DNA from: Chitinophagales bacterium
GTDB lineage: Bacteria; Bacteroidota; Bacteroidia; Chitinophagales; BACL12
Assembly: GCA_035439505.1 (NCBI GenBank)
Contig: DAORKJ010000002.1
Location: 20,735 to 84,734 of the forward strand
Length of the DNA: 64,000 nucleotides
Reading direction: 5' to 3'
Positions 16,886 to 53,140 of the stretch are shown here, one piece after another (the stretch's first letter is position 1; each line of letters starts with the position of its first letter). The position numbers and the translations under genes are program-made. The notes under the pieces are model-generated. The model had not been told where the DNA came from and made no database searches. It was given only the letters and a program-made list of their open reading frames with translations.

Positions 16886-17779
16886 ATGAGCAAAGAAACT
16901 TCTATATCTAAACAAGGCATAGGCAAAACAATTGCAGCCAAACTGAAAGATTACCACATGCTGGTAAAATTCAGATTGAGTTTCATTGTTGTGTTCAGTG
17001 CAGGTATAGGATATTTATTTGCCGGTGGCGAACAATCATCGTTCTTTTTATTTTTAGCAGGTGGATTTTTGATTACAGCAGCATCAAATGCTATTAATCA
17101 GATAATTGAATCTGATACGGATAAATTAATGACGCGCACCGCTGATCGACCTTTAGCTGCCGGAAGAATGCAGTCAACGGAAGCTATAATTGCTGCCGGG
17201 CTGATGGCAGTTTCGGGTATTGCTATTTTATGGGTTTGGTTTAATACCTTAAGTGCATTACTTGGAGCTTTATCACTCATTAGTTATGCCTTTTTGTATA
17301 CACCAATGAAAAAGGTTTCACCAATTGCTGTTTTTATTGGCGCATTTCCCGGTGCAATGCCACCACTTATTGGTTGTGCAGCAGCAGCAGGTGGAATTAA
17401 CGATTTAGCTATATTGTTATTTTCAGTGCAGTTTGTATGGCAGTTTCCTCATTTTTGGTCTATTGCCTGGGTTGCAGCTGATGATTACGCAAAAGGCGGA
17501 TTTCATTTATTGCCTTCTGTAAAAGGACGTTCTAAGACATCAGCTTTATATATTGTTATTTATACCATCTTATTGATACCTGTAAGTTTGCTTATGTATT
17601 TATTAGGTTACACAGGGTGGATATCAGCATTAATTGTTTTTATAACCGGAATATTATTTTTATTACAAACTGTTAAACTGTATCGCAGCAGTGAAATTAA
17701 AGATGCACGCAGTTTAATGTTTGGTTCGTTTTTATATTTACCAATCGTGCTTATTGCATTGTTGGTAGATCAAATTTAA
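16886..17779 (+). CDS. cyoE: Protoheme IX farnesyltransferase (heme O synthase)
   Basis: It is a UbiA-family polytopic protein with an Asp-rich motif (ESDTDKLMTRTADRPL), embedded in the oxidase cluster. Confidence 0.9.
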   Translation: MSKETSISKQGIGKTIAAKLKDYHMLVKFRLSFIVVFSAGIGYLFAGGEQSSFFLFLAGGFLITAASNAINQIIESDTDKLMTRTADRPLAAGRMQSTEAIIAAGLMAVSGIAILWVWFNTLSALLGALSLISYAFLYTPMKKVSPIAVFIGAFPGAMPPLIGCAAAAGGINDLAILLFSVQFVWQFPHFWSIAWVAADDYAKGGFHLLPSVKGRSKTSALYIVIYTILLIPVSLLMYLLGYTGWISALIVFITGILFLLQTVKLYRSSEIKDARSLMFGSFLYLPIVLIALLVDQI

Positions 17780-17783
17780 AAAT

Positions 17784-18368
17784 ATGGCATCATCAATACA
17801 TAAAAGGTATATCGTACATCCCTACAAGTTTAACTTGTGGATTGGCATCGTGTCGATGGTGATGATATTCGCTGCATTTACCAGCGCCTATGTTGTAAAA
17901 AAAGGAGATACACGCACTTGGGAACATATCCATTTGCCATCCATTTTTACAACGGCAACAATTGTAATAGTGATTAGCAGTCTTTTTATGCATGCCGCTT
18001 ATTTGGCGTTTAAAAAAGGTGCTTTAAATTTATATAGAGGGTTTATTGTAACAGCATTCATTTTAGGTGCTGGTTTTTTAGCCCTTCAAATTCAAGGATG
18101 GAATACTTTGGTTAATGAAGGTTACGGATTAACCGAAAATGTTGCAGGTTCTTTTATTTATGTTATTTCCGGCGCGCATTTTTTGCATGTTGCCGGTGGT
18201 GTAATTGCATTAATGGTGTTTGCTGTTCGTGCTTTTACCAGATTAAAAACAACCGAATCGGATTTAATGAAGACAAATACTATTAATATCGAAGTAATGG
18301 CAACTTATTGGCATTTTGTCGATTTTTTATGGGTTTATCTTTATTTTTTCTTTTTATTGAACAGATAA
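17784..18368 (+). CDS. Heme-copper oxidase subunit III family protein (short form)
   Basis: It is a 5-TM protein with a C-terminal YWHFVDFLWVYLY motif typical of subunit III. Confidence 0.8.
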   Translation: MASSIHKRYIVHPYKFNLWIGIVSMVMIFAAFTSAYVVKKGDTRTWEHIHLPSIFTTATIVIVISSLFMHAAYLAFKKGALNLYRGFIVTAFILGAGFLALQIQGWNTLVNEGYGLTENVAGSFIYVISGAHFLHVAGGVIALMVFAVRAFTRLKTTESDLMKTNTINIEVMATYWHFVDFLWVYLYFFFLLNR

Positions 18369-18380
18369 AATTTTAGAATT

Positions 18381-19058
18381 TTGGAAGCAGTTGCTAAAAC
18401 GAACGCAAAAGAACTTTGGGACGGTGGAGATTCCCCGTTTAGAGTTAGCTATGGCAAGGTGATGATGTGGTATTTCCTCATCAGCGATACTTTTACTTTT
18501 GCCGGCTTATTAATTTCTTATGGAGCTATCAGAATGAGCCATCCTGCTCATGAAGAAGGTAACATGATGAGTTGGCCGGATCCTAACGAAGTATTTAACG
18601 CCATTCCATTTACACATGCGCATCTACCTTTGGCATTTGTTACGTTCATGACCTTTACGCTGATTTTCAGCTCGGTTACCATGGTTCGTGCCGTGCAGGA
18701 AGGACATGAAATGAACAGAAAAGGTGTTTTATTCTGGATGTTCCTGACTATTCTTGGTGGTTTAACCTTTGTTGGTAGTCAGTATCTTGAATGGACCCAC
18801 TTAATTCATGAAGGTCAAACTTTAACCCATAACCCTTTTGGAGCAGCATCGTTTGGTGCTTTGTTCTTCCTCATTACCGGTTTCCACGGATTCCACGTGA
18901 GTGTTGGGGTGTGTTTAAATACCTGGGCATTTATTCAAACTTACAGAGGGGTTTTCCACCGTCGTGGACATTATGAAATGATTGAAAAATTAGGTTTATA
19001 CTGGCACTTTGTAGATTTAGTTTGGGTTTTTGTATTCTTAGCATTCTATTTATTATAA
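18381..19058 (+). CDS. Heme-copper oxidase subunit III family protein
   Basis: It uses a TTG start and carries the LYWHFVDLVWVFVF motif. It is the second subunit-III paralog in tandem. Confidence 0.8.
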   Translation: MEAVAKTNAKELWDGGDSPFRVSYGKVMMWYFLISDTFTFAGLLISYGAIRMSHPAHEEGNMMSWPDPNEVFNAIPFTHAHLPLAFVTFMTFTLIFSSVTMVRAVQEGHEMNRKGVLFWMFLTILGGLTFVGSQYLEWTHLIHEGQTLTHNPFGAASFGALFFLITGFHGFHVSVGVCLNTWAFIQTYRGVFHRRGHYEMIEKLGLYWHFVDLVWVFVFLAFYLL

Positions 19059-19076
19059 AAAATTTAACTGAAAGAT

Positions 19077-19412
19077 ATGTCACACGGTACTCATGCAGAA
19101 AAAATAAAAAAAGTATGGACAATTTGCGGTGTTCTTGCAATTGTAACTGCTTTTGAAATTGCAGCGGCGCTTATTCACTGGAAGTATATGCCGGAAAGCC
19201 CAAGATGGTGGCTTAACTTACTCTTCATTATTTTGAGTGCGGCTAAAGCGTATTATATCATGAGCGAATTTATGCACTTAAAATATGAACTTAAAGCAAT
19301 GGCCGTAAGTATATTAGCACCGTTCCTGTTTTTGGTATGGGGTATAATTGCATTCCTTTGGGAAGGTGGTTACTGGTTGAGTTTAAAAGAATCGTGGGAG
19401 ATTCTTAAATAA
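19077..19412 (+). CDS. Cytochrome c oxidase subunit IV-like small membrane protein
   Basis: It is 111 aa with three predicted TM segments and sits right after the subunit III genes. Confidence 0.7.
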   Translation: MSHGTHAEKIKKVWTICGVLAIVTAFEIAAALIHWKYMPESPRWWLNLLFIILSAAKAYYIMSEFMHLKYELKAMAVSILAPFLFLVWGIIAFLWEGGYWLSLKESWEILK

Positions 19413-19414
19413 CG

Positions 19415-20071
19415 ATGGCAAACAAACGGGGGCGGGTATGGGCAATTGTAATGCTCACAATTATAGTTGTGCTCCCGCTTATTTCAGTTATTTTTCTAAA
19501 GGAAGGCTTCAAAATCAGAGAAGAAGCACCTGCAAGCAGCAGGATGATTATTGATAATCCACCTCAAATTCCTGATTATTTTACTGTTTCTCATAGAGGA
19601 GATACCATTACCAAAAAACGTATGCTTAACAAGGTATGTGTGATGGATTTTTCTACCTACAGCTGCGGTACTACTAATGATGCCCGCGAGCGGAAATTAT
19701 TTGAGATTCAGGAAGACTATTATGGGAAAACAAAAGCATTGCGTCTAATCTCACATACGCTTAACCCTGAGCTTGACCAAACAACCCAGTTAGTGTCTAT
19801 GGCTGAGCGGTACTCAGCCCGTGAAATTTGGCACTTTGTTAGAACGGATGACAGCTCCTCATTCAAATTTCACGACTTCAGTAAAAATATTTTCGAAAAA
19901 ACAGGTGCTATTGAAACTGATACGCTTTGTCCACAGTTAGTATATCTTGTGGATGGGGATGGATTTCTCCGCGGCGCTTACGACCCTTTGATTGAATCCC
20001 AATTCCACGATTTATATAACGATATTCTGTTTCTGATAAATAAACTGGATCTGGATGAACAAGAGAAATAA
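19415..20071 (+). CDS. SCO1/SenC-like thioredoxin-fold protein lacking the CxxxC copper site
   Basis: It has an N-terminal anchor and shares length and layout with the next gene. The CxxxC position reads YSCGTTND, and the LVD-G-LRG region has no His. Confidence 0.6.
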   Translation: MANKRGRVWAIVMLTIIVVLPLISVIFLKEGFKIREEAPASSRMIIDNPPQIPDYFTVSHRGDTITKKRMLNKVCVMDFSTYSCGTTNDARERKLFEIQEDYYGKTKALRLISHTLNPELDQTTQLVSMAERYSAREIWHFVRTDDSSSFKFHDFSKNIFEKTGAIETDTLCPQLVYLVDGDGFLRGAYDPLIESQFHDLYNDILFLINKLDLDEQEK

Positions 20072-20708
20072 TATAATAATTGCCGGTGTTGTCGGAGTTG
20101 CTTTTATTCTCTTTGTGATTTTTGTGTATTTGCCTTATGCCGACAAGCAGGAAAACCTGAATAAGGTAAAACAATCGTATCAACATTCTTCTTTTTTACG
20201 CGACTCGCTTAATCATATTCCTAATTTTACCTGCGTAGACCAAAATGGAAAAACCTTTACCAATAAGGATGTTGAAGAAACAGTATTCGTAGCGGAATTT
20301 TTTTATACCGAATGTGATGCCTATTGTCCGGTTACATCAAAACATCTTGCACAAGTACAGCAATCGTTAAACAACGCCATAAATTTTAAAATTCTTTCTT
20401 TTAGCCTCAACCCTGAAACAGATTCAGTGCCGGTTTTAAGAAAATATGCTGATGCGTATAAAGCCAAAGATAATATGTGGCATTTTTTACGTGGAGAACA
20501 ATCCGATATTTTTGATTTGGGTGAACAAGGTTTCTTTACCGTTGTTAAAGGAGCGGATGGCTCGTTTAAAGGGCATTCGGATAAGTTTACGCTTGTCGAT
20601 AAAAATGGTAATATCAGAGGATTTTATAAAGGAACCGACTCAATTCAAATGCAAGCTTTAATTCAGGATATCAATTATCTCGTGTTTAAAAATGAAGTCA
20701 ATGAATGA
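20055..20708 (+). CDS. SCO1/SenC family copper chaperone
   Basis: It has an N-terminal anchor, the FFYTECDAYCP (CxxxC) motif and the downstream GHSDKFTLVDKNGNIRG segment. Confidence 0.8.
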   Translation: MNKRNNIIIAGVVGVAFILFVIFVYLPYADKQENLNKVKQSYQHSSFLRDSLNHIPNFTCVDQNGKTFTNKDVEETVFVAEFFYTECDAYCPVTSKHLAQVQQSLNNAINFKILSFSLNPETDSVPVLRKYADAYKAKDNMWHFLRGEQSDIFDLGEQGFFTVVKGADGSFKGHSDKFTLVDKNGNIRGFYKGTDSIQMQALIQDINYLVFKNEVNE

Positions 20709-21264
20709 AAAATCAACCAATAGAATAATTTTTGCAATATCGGTGGCCGTGCCGGTTTTAGTTGCAGTATTATTTTATACACCTGCATTGAACCTAAATA
20801 TCAATGTTTCATTTTTACCAAAATTACATGCCATATTAAATTCTACCGTTGCCATTTTATTATTAATCGGTTTGTATTTTATAAAAACGAAAAATATCAA
20901 GGCGCATAAATTAACTATGTTGGGAGCATTTTCAACCTCAGCATTGTTTTTAATATCTTATGTGATTTATCATTCAGCCTCTGAGTCAACATTATTTGGC
21001 GATAGCAATTTTGATGGAACAGTTAGCGCGGAGGAAAGTGCTGCAGTGAGCAGTATAAAAATGGTGTATTATATCATTTTACTATCGCACATTATTCTGG
21101 CTGCTGTTATCATGCCGTTTATTTTAATTACTGTTTCCCATGGGTTGTCTGCAAGGTTCGATAAACACCGGAAAATTGCCAAAATAACCTGGCCTTTATG
21201 GTTTTATGTTGCCGTAACAGGCGTGGTGGTATATTTTATGATTGCACCCTATTATCCGCATTAA
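20692..21264 (+). CDS. DUF420 family membrane protein (CtaM-like oxidase accessory factor)
   Basis: It is a roughly 190-aa four-to-five TM protein at the end of an oxidase cluster. The family call is by recollection of this arrangement. Confidence 0.65.
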   Translation: MKSMNEKSTNRIIFAISVAVPVLVAVLFYTPALNLNINVSFLPKLHAILNSTVAILLLIGLYFIKTKNIKAHKLTMLGAFSTSALFLISYVIYHSASESTLFGDSNFDGTVSAEESAAVSSIKMVYYIILLSHIILAAVIMPFILITVSHGLSARFDKHRKIAKITWPLWFYVAVTGVVVYFMIAPYYPH

Positions 21265-50250: not shown

Positions 50251-50802
50251 ATGAAAAAAGTAACTAAATTATTTGCAGTAGCTGCAATAGCGTTTGTGTC
50301 GAATGTAAGTATTGCGCAAACCGTAACAGTAGGAGGCGAAGCCATGTATCCTAAAAAAGATATTATTGACAATGCTGTTAATTCAAAAGACCATACAACC
50401 TTAGTAGCAGCAGTTCAAGCAGCGGGATTGGTAGAAACTTTAAAAACAGCCGGTCCTTTTACCGTTTTTGCACCGGTTAACGATGCATTTGAAAATTTGC
50501 CTGAAGGAACTGTTACCACTTTATTAAAACCTGAGAATAAAGCAACCTTATCTACAGTGTTAACTTATCACGTTGTTGCAGGAAAATTGGACTTTAATGC
50601 CATAGCAAAATTGATAAAAGAAAATAAAGGTGTAGCTACATTAACCACTGTAAGCGGTGGAAAATTAATGGCGATGATGAACGGCGAACATAATATTCAG
50701 TTGAAAGACGAAAACGGCTCCCTCATCAATATTACTACTTACGATGTTTACCAAAGTAACGGTGTAATACATGTAATTGACAGGGTTGCTTTACCAAAAT
50801 AA
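50251..50802 (+). CDS. Fasciclin (FAS1) domain secreted protein
   Basis: It has a signal peptide from MKKVTKLF and the FTVFAPVNDAF and VIHVIDRVALP motifs. Confidence 0.85.
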   Translation: MKKVTKLFAVAAIAFVSNVSIAQTVTVGGEAMYPKKDIIDNAVNSKDHTTLVAAVQAAGLVETLKTAGPFTVFAPVNDAFENLPEGTVTTLLKPENKATLSTVLTYHVVAGKLDFNAIAKLIKENKGVATLTTVSGGKLMAMMNGEHNIQLKDENGSLINITTYDVYQSNGVIHVIDRVALPK

Positions 50803-50823
50803 GTGTGGTTGCCTAACAAATAG

Positions 50824-50852
50824 AAGGGTTCCGGTTTCCGGGGCCCTTTTTT
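50824..50852 (+). terminator. Intrinsic terminator after the fasciclin gene
   Basis: AAGGGTTCCGG-ttt-CCGGGGCCCTT forms a stem with two G-U pairs and is followed by T6. Confidence 0.65.
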
Positions 50853-50896
50853 GGTTAAATGATGATTTATATCATAAACTGTTTGCCAATGTTCCT

Positions 50897-50904
50897 TACC
50901 TTTG
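50897..50904 (+). promoter_or_regulatory. -7 promoter box for the 50919-52657 three-gene module
   Basis: TACCTTTG matches TAnnTTTG, and the ATG follows 14 nt later. The same spacing is seen at pstS-1b and prx. Confidence 0.4.
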
Positions 50905-50918
50905 CAGTGGATTAGTGT

Positions 50919-51296
50919 ATGAAAAGGACATTTGCCATTTTTATTACCTTTTGTTACCTCTCTGGTGTGTTTGCGCCCTTTTATACCTATGCCGGCTACT
51001 TTTTGAATAAAGATTTCATTATCGAAAACTTTTGTATCAATAAAAACAAACCAGAGCTGGAATGTGATGGTAAGTGTTATCTCAACAAACAAATAGCCGA
51101 ACAAACTCAAAAAACAGCCGATGCTCAAACACCGGTTAACGAAAATATGAAATCACTAACTGCACATGAAATAGTGAGTGATAATCAAATAACTTTTTTC
51201 CCTTCAAAGTTGCTGCTGAAACAATCCCTGCCTTTAAAAACAGCATCCTTCAACGGTGTTCCGGCCGTTTACTCGCCTCCCGAAATTTTAGCGTAA
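50919..51296 (+). CDS. Small membrane-anchored protein with a C-x9-C-x3-C motif
   Basis: It has an N-terminal hydrophobic helix followed by FCINKNKPELECDGKCYL. A promoter box lies upstream. I prefer it to the antisense ORF at 50748-51128. Confidence 0.55.
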   Translation: MKRTFAIFITFCYLSGVFAPFYTYAGYFLNKDFIIENFCINKNKPELECDGKCYLNKQIAEQTQKTADAQTPVNENMKSLTAHEIVSDNQITFFPSKLLLKQSLPLKTASFNGVPAVYSPPEILA

Positions 51297-51350
51297 AACA
51301 ACATGTTTATCCCGTTGTACTAATTTATTTACGTTTAAAATTTTAACAAA

Positions 51351-51755
51351 ATGAAAAATTATATTTTGGCTATTGCCACTATTGCTGCTATTACATTTAC
51401 TGCATGTAAAAATGATGATGATCCAATCGATGAACCGGAAGTTTACGATGTAACGTTTACAATTGTTGAACCAGAAGATGGTGCTGTGTTTACCTCAGGT
51501 GATGAGTTGCATATGGAAGTTGATTTCGAAGGAACTTTAGCATTAGGAAATGTTGAAATTCTTGCAATTAATCATACTACTGACGATACTATTGCACATA
51601 TAACTGCAACTACTACTGAAACATTTTATATGATTCACGAACATGCTGATTTATCAGTAACTGAAGTTTCTGAATGTCATTTTATTGTTTCAGCATGGCA
51701 AACAAATTATGCTGACCGCATTAGCGAAGAGATTGATTTCACTATTAATCCTTAA
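51351..51755 (+). CDS. Small acidic lipoprotein (probable beta-sandwich)
   Basis: It has the lipobox FTAC, an acidic beta-rich sequence and an HEH triad (MIHEHADL). Confidence 0.65.
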   Translation: MKNYILAIATIAAITFTACKNDDDPIDEPEVYDVTFTIVEPEDGAVFTSGDELHMEVDFEGTLALGNVEILAINHTTDDTIAHITATTTETFYMIHEHADLSVTEVSECHFIVSAWQTNYADRISEEIDFTINP

Positions 51756-51757
51756 TT

Positions 51758-52657
51758 ATGAAACGACTAACAATTGTAATTTTGATACTTATTGTCAAAA
51801 TTACAATAAGTCCGCTTAGCGCCTGCGACCAATGTGGATGTTCTGTTGCCGGGTCGTATAATAATGTGACAGCCTATGCGCATAATAATTATATGATGTT
51901 TAAGGCAGGTTATTATAAGTTTAGCACCGGAACAGCAACCAGCAAACTGCATAGCGAAATGTTTTCGGTTGATGCTATTGTCGGATATAACATAACCAAT
52001 CGTTTACATGTTTTGGCATTTGTGCCTTACCGATTAAATCAATTTTCGGGTGAGGATAATACCTATACAGTAAATGGTTTTGGCGATATGGGATTACTGG
52101 GGAATTATGTTGTGGCAACTAATCGCGACAACATGATGGCTAAGTACACTTATAGTTTAACAGTAAAAGCCGGTGTGGAATTACCAACCGGAAAATTTAT
52201 AGATGATTATCGCGCTTTAGGTGTTCCGGCTAATTTATCGGCAGGGTCTAAAACCTTTGATGGCATTACAGGCTTGCGATATATTTATAAAAGAAAAAGT
52301 ACCACTTTAATTGGTGATTATACATTTAAATACAATCCGGAAAACGAAGCAAATTATCGTTTTGGGAATCAACATACTGCAACAATTTTGGCTGCTCAAC
52401 GATTTATGCAATCAAAAACAGTTTTAACTCCTTATGTTGGTGTTACCGGCGAATTAGACGGTACGGATTTGTATCACGAAATCGAACAACATGGTACTAA
52501 AGGTGAAACGTTATTATTAAACAGTGGAATTGAATTGGGTTTCGGTGATTACATTGCCGGAATTACTGCAGATTTTCCTTTATATGCCAACTTTGGCGAA
52601 GAAGCGAAATCATCTCCACGTTACTCTTTGCGTTTTGCTTATATGTTAAATAACTGA
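51758..52657 (+). CDS. Outer-membrane beta-barrel of the MetA-pathway/transporter-like family with an N-terminal CDQCGC motif
   Basis: The signal peptide ends in LSAC (lipobox-like). Alternating beta-strand pattern, a GFGDMG motif and a C-terminal aromatic-rich strand are present. It starts 2 nt after the previous gene. Confidence 0.7.
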   Translation: MKRLTIVILILIVKITISPLSACDQCGCSVAGSYNNVTAYAHNNYMMFKAGYYKFSTGTATSKLHSEMFSVDAIVGYNITNRLHVLAFVPYRLNQFSGEDNTYTVNGFGDMGLLGNYVVATNRDNMMAKYTYSLTVKAGVELPTGKFIDDYRALGVPANLSAGSKTFDGITGLRYIYKRKSTTLIGDYTFKYNPENEANYRFGNQHTATILAAQRFMQSKTVLTPYVGVTGELDGTDLYHEIEQHGTKGETLLLNSGIELGFGDYIAGITADFPLYANFGEEAKSSPRYSLRFAYMLNN

Positions 52658-52676
52658 CACGTATCCATTAATAAAG

Positions 52677-52708
52677 AAGGTCCTTCGTTGTTGGGGGGCC
52701 TTTTTTGT
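52677..52708 (+). terminator. Intrinsic terminator after the three-gene module
   Basis: AAGGTCC...GGGCCTT forms a stem with one G-U pair and is followed by TTTTTTGTTTTT. Confidence 0.6.
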
Positions 52709-52894
52709 TTTTCGGATGGATGGTATCTTTTAATTTGTTGTTGGCAACATCATTAAAACAATAATACTATTTTCTGTAAATGATATTATTAATAATTAAT
52801 GACCTGCATTTATTAAAATGATTATTTAGTAATAATTAAATGATAAAGATGGGGAAGTATGTACGGTTAGCCCGGATGGAAGCGGAAACTAACT

Positions 52895-52934
52895 AATGTG
52901 TTAATGTGTTGATGTACCGATGTACCAATGTGAA
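52895..52934. repeat. Five-unit 8-bp tandem array (AATGTGTT x2, GATGTACC x2, AATGTGAA)
   Basis: I read this directly from the sequence. ATGT recurs with an exact 8-bp period five times. Confidence 0.7.
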
Positions 52935-53093
52935 ACAGCCGGTGAGAAGGGGGAATTTAATTTTTAAGACGAATGGGAAGGCGGAGGTAGTTTGAGGCGG
53001 AAAATTTAATGCGTAGTTGTGTTAGTTGCAGCGGACAGCCGGTTCGGATTGTTTTGATAAGGAGGATGTTGATGCTCCAAAAAATAATACCAT

Positions 53094-53124
53094 AAAAAAA
53101 GGCCTCCGTGTGGAGACCTTTTTA
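53094..53124 (-). terminator. Intrinsic terminator after rny (hairpin usable on both strands)
   Basis: AGGCCTCC-gtgt-GGAGACCT forms the stem, flanked by A7 and T5. Confidence 0.6.
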
Positions 53125-53140
53125 TGATTTTCTGTTTAAT

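Follow-up and report, generated by a model that had tools for sequence, protein, structure and literature searches.

A putative copper-handling operon in a Chitinophagales bacterium, with a probable CutF/CruR-like leader protein and a distinct family of predicted outer-membrane β-barrels

We analyzed a 64,000-nucleotide (nt) stretch of DNA from a Chitinophagales bacterium (GenBank assembly GCA_035439505.1, contig DAORKJ010000002.1, positions 20,735 to 84,734 of the forward strand), which we refer to as the window, and focused on three adjacent plus-strand genes that we call P1, P2 and P3. P1 (50919..51296) encodes a putative CutF/CruR-like leader protein of 125 amino acids (aa), P2 (51351..51755) an acidic lipoprotein of 134 aa, and P3 (51758..52657) a predicted 12-stranded outer-membrane β-barrel of 299 aa. 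Besides the open reading frames (ORFs) themselves, these assignments draw on motif and tail conservation for P1, on a lipobox and an immunoglobulin (Ig)-like β-sandwich model for P2, and on an AlphaFold2 model and Foldseek matches for P3. With moderate confidence, we read the trio as an operon for the acquisition or handling of copper across the outer membrane, in which P1 would serve as a leader of the CutF/CruR type and P2 and P3 would be the effectors. CutF of R. capsulatus, in which a CXXXC motif is combined with a proline motif at the C-terminus, is co-translationally exported and senses periplasmic copper (PMC9973294; bioRxiv 10.1101/2025.02.05.636593).

P3 loci were collected in a genome scan that used the P3 Cys motif as its pattern. 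The scan gave 68 loci, mostly in metagenome-assembled genomes (MAGs) of Saprospiraceae, Lewinellaceae and Chitinophagales, and these were used for gene context only. Neighbouring genes were labelled from six-frame ORFs by jackhmmer and tallied over 73 unique P3 loci, in 66 of which a P1 homolog is found upstream of P3. The most common layouts are P1-P3-MbnP-MbnH (15 loci), P1-P3-P2 (13), P1-P3-MbnP-MbnH-P2 (6) and P1-P2-P3 (6), the last being that of the window, and further layouts include YHS and SCO1. Pfam matches confirm the labels of the neighbours, with E-values of 9e-47 for MbnP, 2e-48 for CCP_MauG, 7e-12 for YHS and 1e-26 for SCO1. The families of the trio, which the original prediction for this locus had put forward as a functional unit, therefore do co-occur in other genomes, where P1 and P3 are joined by P2 and/or MbnP/MbnH, YHS and SCO1. 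Chance adjacency of three genes whose Cys and His motifs are coincidental, an explanation with nothing in its favour beyond the missing annotation, is refuted by the recurrence of both the P1-P3 adjacency and the motifs over dozens of distantly related loci, in which P3 identity falls to 22-36%, and we give it practically no weight.

The genes that accompany P1 and P3 point to copper. Both SCO1 and YHS belong to families associated with copper. MbnP binds copper, and MbnH makes its kynurenine ligand (PMC11951088); MbnP/MbnH are found in approximately half of the homologous P3 loci. In Vaginella massiliensis (LT593745.1, 2570-6978; our locus L005), a cultured member of the Flavobacteriales, the operon has the order P1-YHS-SCO1-MbnP-MbnH-P3 and its P3 homolog is 27% identical. 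Because P1 and P3 are embedded in operons with MbnP, MbnH, YHS and SCO1, the handling of a metal or of sulfur compounds that had originally been suggested for the trio can be narrowed to a thiophilic metal, specifically copper, and its sulfur part is left without support. We infer copper as the metal of the P1-P3 operons through guilt by association, which is consistent and copper-specific.

The same partners bear on the direction of transport and on the choice of metal. The proteins that recur with P1 and P3 (MbnP/MbnH, SCO1, YHS, YtkA-like proteins and TonB-dependent receptors) belong to copper acquisition or cuproenzyme assembly, and efflux genes of the RND, CusF or P-type ATPase kinds were not seen next to the P1/P3 loci; on these grounds we prefer uptake to efflux. 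As to the metal, the tri-Cys and CxxC motifs speak for Cu(I). The architecture could also be put to another use, namely metal efflux or detoxification, or the handling of zinc, nickel, cobalt or cadmium instead of copper uptake. The target of CutF itself is a detoxifying oxidase, and nickel or cobalt genes lie behind some CutF-like leaders (PMC9973294), the His-rich P2 family would suit zinc or nickel as well, and the window operon is among those without MbnP, MbnH, YHS and SCO1. Set against the partner proteins, the missing efflux genes and the Cys motifs, we consider such a role unlikely.

P1 homologs also occur in operons without P3. We searched metagenomes with a degenerate DNA pattern of the P1 Cys motif alone, and 117 of the 120 matches were P1 homologs. 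The gene following P1 was tallied in the 72 P1-found metagenome loci with enough downstream sequence: it encodes a TonB-dependent receptor in 24 loci, MbnP in 20, a YtkA-like protein in 10, P3 in 6, YHS (followed by SCO1) in 3, and PepSY_TM, MbnH and a second P1 in 1 each, with other genes or none in the remaining 6. The YtkA-like proteins are of approximately 281 aa, carry the YtkA-like domain at their C-terminus (E 2e-8) and lie directly 3′ of P1 (L093 721-1566, L104 6898-7752 and eight other loci); this family is a candidate further member of the same regulon. Contigs L103, L149, L142 and L092 each hold two neighbouring P1-headed sub-operons, such as P1-YHS-SCO1 and then P1-MbnP-MbnH-P3. 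In L070, L091 and L187, P1 is present in tandem, and in L091 one P1 is followed by an AraC-family regulator.

Since its downstream partners are unrelated, and since only the Cys motif, the spacer length and the terminal PP are conserved, P1 behaves as a cis-acting leader and not as a stoichiometric subunit; a separate P1 copy for each sub-operon (L103, L149, L142) suits the same pattern. P1 thus most likely acts in regulation and does not take part in transport, and the earlier picture of three co-equal envelope components is not supported, as P1 homologs head P3-free operons with TonB-dependent receptors, MbnP/MbnH, YtkA-like proteins, YHS-SCO1 or PepSY_TM. The same operons speak against the idea that all three proteins are structural parts of a trans-envelope metal relay, in which P1 would be an inner-membrane-anchored tri-Cys chaperone that exchanges metal with the P3 tail and the PP would dock on a partner. 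Such a relay would account for the position of P1 immediately 5′ of P3 in the 66 loci and for the three conserved Cys that P1 and P3 each bear beside their N-terminal targeting signals, and structural and regulatory roles are not mutually exclusive. P1 is, however, barely conserved outside the Cys motif and its last five residues, and the sub-operons with their own P1 copy fit a leader better than a subunit, which makes the relay improbable in our view.

The sequence of P1 is organized in line with a role as leader. P1 contains FCINKNKPELECDGKC, with the Cys motif C39-x9-C49-x3-C53 (51033-51077), the CxxxC part of which reads C49-D-G-K-C53. Its N-terminus, MKR followed by a hydrophobic stretch of approximately 23 residues (about residues 5-27), has no obvious cleavage site and reads as an N-in anchor. 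The tail is V-Y-S-P-P, in which PP occupies residues 120-121 of 125 (51276-51281), four residues from the stop, and a poorly conserved spacer of 66 residues separates the Cys motif from the PP. C39, C49, C53, P120 and P121 are invariant across 54 diverse homologs, and the few positions kept across 54-69 homologs are C39, N41, P45, C49, G51, K52, C53 and the C-terminal PP. Mean pairwise identity is 26% in the anchor, 44% in the Cys region, 16% in the spacer and 60% in the five residues that end in PP. Among homologs, the distance between the last Cys and the PP is 61-78 residues (mostly 64-70) and the PP lies 1-9 residues before the stop. The tail motif of the family is [IVL]-[FL]-[RKHQ]-P-P, with FHPP, FRPP and FQPP as the most common forms and YSPP in the window. 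Independent confirmation comes from the metagenomes: of 122 distinct P1 sequences that had been selected by the Cys motif only, 113 also carry the distal PP at the distance given above. With start codons corrected, most homologs are 121-150 aa long, and the next same-strand gene, which begins 54 nt after P1 in the window, follows at a median distance of 110 nt across loci. P1 has no Pfam or NCBIfam match. A transcription attenuator after P1 was also considered. A hairpin of -8 kcal/mol or below is found just 3′ of the stop codon in 44% of P1 ends vs 30% of other gene ends and 17% of shuffles (p = 0.03); the enrichment across loci is modest and the window has no such hairpin, and this candidate was not used as evidence for the window.

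P1, P2 and P3 form a single operon, of a kind conserved in Bacteroidota, that extends from the promoter box at 50897 to the terminator at approximately 52709. The box, TACCTTTG (50897..50904, plus strand), is an exact match to the Bacteroidota-type -7 element TAnnTTTG and is located 14 nt 5′ of the P1 ATG, so that the mRNA leader would be very short or missing. In 53 of 65 unique P1 genome loci, an exact TAnnTTTG precedes the ATG by 4-14 nt and the first Cys codon by 124-144 nt, and a box stands at the equivalent position in 74 of 120 metagenome P1 loci. None was found within 100 nt upstream of 72 P3, 46 P2 and 37 MbnP genes. As the box stands only before P1, P1 can be taken as the promoter-proximal gene of a nearly leaderless operon, and the distribution supports the co-transcription that the original prediction had proposed from its reading of the locus. 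The features on which that reading was built, namely three ORFs with gaps of 54 nt (P1-P2) and 2 nt (P2-P3), the TAnnTTTG box and a terminator on either side, are all present. The 5′ limit of the unit is the intrinsic terminator of an upstream fasciclin-domain gene (50822..50852, plus strand), in which positions 50822-50850 fold at -20.9 kcal/mol (z -3.1) ahead of a U-run. The operon is closed by a strong intrinsic terminator (52670..52709, plus strand) with a fold of -25.4 kcal/mol (z -6.3; 0 of 200 shuffles as stable), again followed by a U-run.

Two side observations concern the promoter region. Counted on both strands of the whole window, TAnnTTTG is under-represented (65 matches vs 103 ± 10 expected from dinucleotide-preserving shuffles, all 100 of which contained at least 65), which is consistent with avoidance of spurious promoter boxes. 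A minus-strand ORF of 126 aa (50748-51128) overlaps the promoter and the 5′ half of P1; we regarded it as a shadow ORF, since it is the P1 frame that is conserved.

P3 has no Pfam match at E ≤ 1 and no NCBIfam match, and the P3 homolog of locus L010 has no Pfam match at E ≤ 0.01. AlphaFold2, run on a 12-sequence alignment, models P3 as a 12-stranded β-barrel with a predicted local distance difference test (pLDDT) of 80.5 and a predicted template modelling (TM) score (pTM) of 0.78, in agreement with the barrel that had been assigned from the sequence. In Foldseek, the closest solved folds are FapF (E 3e-11, TM 0.66) and the COG4313 channel 4rl8 (E 1e-10, TM 0.62-0.68), and a profile search gave a marginal match to FapF chains (E 0.004). 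The family found with a full-length profile comprises 3,517 representative clusters at E ≤ 1e-3 and 774 at E ≤ 1e-30. The source annotations of its members read “hypothetical protein”, apart from a single RefSeq “transporter”, the homolog of V. massiliensis.

The N-terminus of P3 contains PLSA followed by CDQCGCS, so that the mature end would read C23-D-Q-C26-G-C28-S (51824-51841). Conservation of this motif was assessed in the 147 best full-length-profile representatives, which were not selected by motif and from which the motif-seeded loci of the genome scan were excluded. C-x-x-C-x-C is present in 123 of the 147, and almost all of the others retain ACDxCG; conservation of the Cys motifs in homologs, another point on which the proposal of a functional unit depended, thus extends to a set that was not chosen for them. 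Among 145 members, the residue at position -1 from the first Cys is Ala in 129, that at -3 is small or aliphatic, and that at -2 can be anything, including F, Q, K, Y, N, R and E. This pattern indicates a site of the signal-peptidase-I type rather than the lipobox that had been read into LSAC, and the N-terminal Cys is probably not lipidated. Judging from these residues, mature P3 most likely begins with a free Cys-Asp-x-Cys-Gly-Cys.

The fold of P3 also has a bearing on its substrate. With FapF and the COG4313 channel as the top Foldseek matches, with the RefSeq label of “transporter” and with an N-terminal segment that is not confidently modelled, P3 could instead conduct something other than a metal, for instance a peptide or a hydrophobic compound, and its N-terminal Cys could form only structural disulfides or a redox switch. 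The neighbourhoods argue otherwise: approximately 74 of them contain no fap or aromatic-degradation genes, and the consistent neighbours are copper proteins. Furthermore, an odd number of Cys at the extreme mature N-terminus is atypical of a structural disulfide, and P3 has no Pfam match to Phenol_MetA_deg (PF13557). We regard a non-metal channel as very unlikely, and return to P3 as a copper channel below.

P2 carries the lipobox sequence ITFTAC19, followed by KNDDD. Its lipobox Cys is invariant in the clade of the window protein and conserved in the 49-member family. In Bacteroidota lipoprotein export, acidic residues after the lipidated Cys suggest surface exposure, and since such residues follow C19, P2 is probably exposed on the cell surface, as far as its sequence can tell. 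AlphaFold2 models P2 with eight strands as an Ig-like β-sandwich (pLDDT 86), for which Foldseek returned only generic Ig, FN3 and CBM folds and no structural match to a metal protein. In Pfam and NCBIfam scans, P2 gave nothing above noise apart from a match to DUF4625 (PF15418) at E 1e-4 and 22.8 bits, below the Pfam cutoff of 27; other family members score 17-23 bits, and P0171, a homolog with 89% identity, has a precomputed PF15418 match. H54, M55, H96, E97, H98 and C109 are invariant in the clade of the window P2. The HEH triad to which attention had been drawn is therefore present, at residues 96-98, and is kept within this clade, but not in the wider family, whose 49 members keep “LH”, “HxH” and “DH” histidines. 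P2 homologs are rich in His, and tandem-duplicated forms bear HHH and Met-rich runs. We rejected the possibility that P2 is a truncated MbnP, as the similarity found by hhalign and BLAST is confined to the lipoprotein signal and linker.

Gene structures, folds, motif conservation, co-occurrence and promoter placement were computed, and from them we infer the copper ligand, the direction of uptake, the surface exposure of P2, stalling and the regulatory outcome. In the proposed mechanism, the N-terminal anchor of P1 would direct co-translational insertion, and the Cys motif would face the periplasm and sample copper while the ribosome sits on a Φ-x-P-P sequence approximately 66-70 residues further on. 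Copper on nascent P1 would alter stalling and thereby the expression of P2 and P3, through a downstream step that could involve Rho, translational coupling or RNA structure. P2, with its Ig-fold and its His, Met, Cys and acidic residues, would capture the metal, probably on the surface, in the manner proposed for DUF4625 “lids”. P3, as a barrel of the FapF/COG4313 type, would give TonB-independent passage, and its free Cys-Asp-x-Cys-Gly-Cys tail may hold Cu(I) at the periplasmic opening or within it before handing the metal on. A bolder version of this mechanism is possible, although we hold it only tentatively. P3 would then found a very large family of TonB-independent copper channels of the Bacteroidota, in which the tail threads into or under the barrel as a mobile Cu(I) ligand and gate, picks up copper from a surface lipoprotein (P2 or MbnP) and delivers it to chaperones in the periplasm. 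The system would be switched by P1 as a Bacteroidota-specific, nearly leaderless Φ-x-P-P arrest peptide that senses periplasmic copper.

Several observations weigh against a copper operon with a CutF/CruR-type leader and temper our confidence in it. MbnP (PF20243), MbnH (CCP_MauG) and YHS gave no tblastn match anywhere in the window, and the only SCO1 match lies at 20202-20684, approximately 30 kilobases from the operon. As the window operon is without diagnostic copper genes, the copper link rests on its homologs, and the operon itself contains no protein of proven copper function. Residues 14-35 of P3 are disordered in the model (pLDDT < 50), with no predicted helix, and the position of the tail relative to the barrel is not fixed by it, while the window P2 has lost two His positions that are conserved in its family. 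The 54-nt spacer between P1 and P2 has no significant structure (z -0.84) and no visible attenuator. Membership of P1 in DUF2946 (Pfam PF11162), the family of CruR, was considered and rejected, as P1 has no DUF2946 match and 0 of 54 P1 homologs match DUF2946 even at E ≤ 10, and the P1 tail is Φ-[RKHQ]-P-P (VYSPP in the window) rather than RAPP or RGPP. A survey of RAPP/RGPP motifs found no such leaders upstream of copper genes in Bacteroidota (PMC12992588), and CutF-like leaders are not all copper-specific (PMC9973294).

Other genes around the trio, in the window and in homologous loci, were also recorded. In the window, the genes 5′ of P1 are unrelated to the trio (pstS-like, pstB-like, phoU, and the gene with a fasciclin domain, E 2e-29, that has its own terminator), as is the RNase Y gene downstream on the opposite strand. 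An ORF-less gap of 430 nt (52709-53140) separates the P3 terminator from this convergent gene. The window is approximately 98% identical to a Bacteroidota (Chitinophagales-like) MAG, JADKEK010000002.1. In the syntenic locus L001, a 193-aa membrane-protein gene takes the place of the gap; this gene has no match in the window. A cytochrome c oxidase assembly cluster is found at 16886-21264 (plus strand), with heme O synthase-like and CoxIII-like ORFs, a membrane ORF at 20692-21264 and two adjacent SCO1/SenC-like ORFs at 19415-20071 and 20055-20708 (tblastn vs SCO1, 1e-25); apart from SCO1, these labels were given by inspection of the translated ORFs. The cluster is a plausible copper client. Among the homologous loci, an extracytoplasmic function (ECF)-type sigma factor gene lies 5′ of P1 on the opposite strand in eight loci (L010 5510-6115, minus strand, and seven others), with an adjoining small ORF in six. 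The ECF sigma gene may reflect lineage synteny or an extra regulatory layer; as functional neighbours, we rejected it along with pyrH, tsf, rpsI and xth, whose recurrence is that of lineage synteny. In 14 loci of the P3 scan, including L010 (9740-11689), L012, L016, L018 and L022, the copper operon includes, between YHS and MbnH, a gene for a peptidase of the M1 family that has a C-terminal sorting domain for type IX secretion.

To our knowledge, the passage of copper across the outer membrane has been described for few systems (TonB-dependent transporters of the OprC/NosA type, porins and methanobactin uptake) and is essentially uncharted in Bacteroidota. If the copper operon reading is correct, a function could be assigned to a family that has thousands of clusters at 50% identity and is modelled in neither Pfam nor NCBIfam: its members would be small copper channels that need no energy input and carry a thiolate ligand of their own. 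MbnP/MbnH would gain an outer-membrane partner outside methanotrophs. The range of nascent-chain metal sensing of the CutF/CruR type would come to include a Bacteroidota family that is distinct in sequence and has a proline motif other than RAPP, and this P1 family would control a set of operons that includes TonB-dependent receptors, MbnP/MbnH, SCO1, YtkA-like proteins and P3. As cultured V. massiliensis carries a homologous operon, these predictions are directly testable, and the species offers a practical experimental model.

The locus can be compared with known systems from the outer membrane inwards. For small lipoproteins of the DUF4625 family, a role as “lids” of non-SusC TonB-dependent transporters has been proposed in Bacteroides, and in B. 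thetaiotaomicron one such lipoprotein and its outer-membrane transporter are cofit (bioRxiv 10.1101/2023.03.17.533168). P2 is likewise a small Ig-like lipoprotein of the Bacteroidota that is encoded beside an outer-membrane barrel, with a weak match to the DUF4625 model. It differs in scoring below the Pfam cutoff and in its partner, which is a 12-stranded barrel without plug or TonB box and not a TonB-dependent transporter. MbnP/MbnH and the TonB-dependent uptake systems that are of the OprC type or controlled by CruR are, like the proposed function of the trio, outer-membrane or periplasmic modules of copper acquisition. The window operon, however, contains neither MbnP nor MbnH, P2 is not homologous to the MbnP domain, and P3 is not a TonB-dependent transporter.

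P3 shares a 12-stranded barrel fold and a similar size with the COG4313 channel of P. putida (Pput2725, 4rl8) and with FapF (5o65), but is only approximately 15% identical to them and has no Pfam match. These channels have a helical plug where P3 has a Cys-rich and Gly-rich N-terminal tail, and their context is amyloid secretion or aromatic catabolism, whereas P3 is surrounded by copper proteins. CopB and PcoB resemble P3 in being outer-membrane barrels with a metal-binding N-terminal extension. The P3 tail is Cys-based rather than rich in Met and His, and a CopB/PcoB-like identity was rejected for P3, as Pfam gave no CopB match and PcoB was outside the top 50 structural matches.

For P1, the closest comparison is with CutF and CruR, published representatives of a class of copper-sensing leader proteins that stall ribosomes. 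In CruR of B. pertussis (DUF2946), a CXXC stands 45 residues ahead of a RAPP that is itself three residues from the C-terminus. CruR is the first protein of an operon for a TonB-dependent receptor, and genes for PepSY_TM, Sco, PCuAC, YcnI, CopC and MbnP/MbnH are found beside its homologs (PMC9426467). A list of CutF-like proteins comprises 5,334 members, 19% of them from Bacteroidota, and P1 agrees with the rules of that list in being shorter than 150 aa, in having PP within its 15 C-terminal residues and a Cys motif, and in being followed by a gene on the same strand (PMC9973294). The rules also call for an N-terminal Sec signal peptide (SPI or SPII by SignalP); at this place P1 has the hydrophobic, anchor-like stretch described above. 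Like CutF and CruR, P1 is the small first gene product of a copper-related operon, with an N-terminus that would direct export or anchoring, a Cys motif (CxxxC for CutF, CxxC for CruR and C-x9-CxxxC for P1), PP a few residues before the stop and a conserved distance from Cys to PP. Its list of partners is nearly that of DUF2946/CruR, with TonB-dependent receptors, PepSY_TM, Sco and MbnP/MbnH in common (PMC9426467). P1 differs in its three Cys with another spacing, in a spacer of approximately 66-70 residues vs 45 ± 2 in CruR, in a promoter box so near the ATG that the mRNA is nearly leaderless, and, in the window, in preceding a lipoprotein and a small barrel rather than a TonB-dependent receptor or a multicopper oxidase. 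The original prediction recognized no characterized system in the trio. That judgement stands for the P3 channel family, which is not characterized, but not for the regulatory logic, which is known from CutF and CruR (PMC9973294, PMC9426467). What is new here is the family of P3 channels, together with the way in which P3 is paired with P2 or with MbnP; the P1 branch would at most be a new member of the CutF/CruR class. P1 is best called a sequence-distinct Bacteroidota branch or analog of the CutF/CruR regulatory class.

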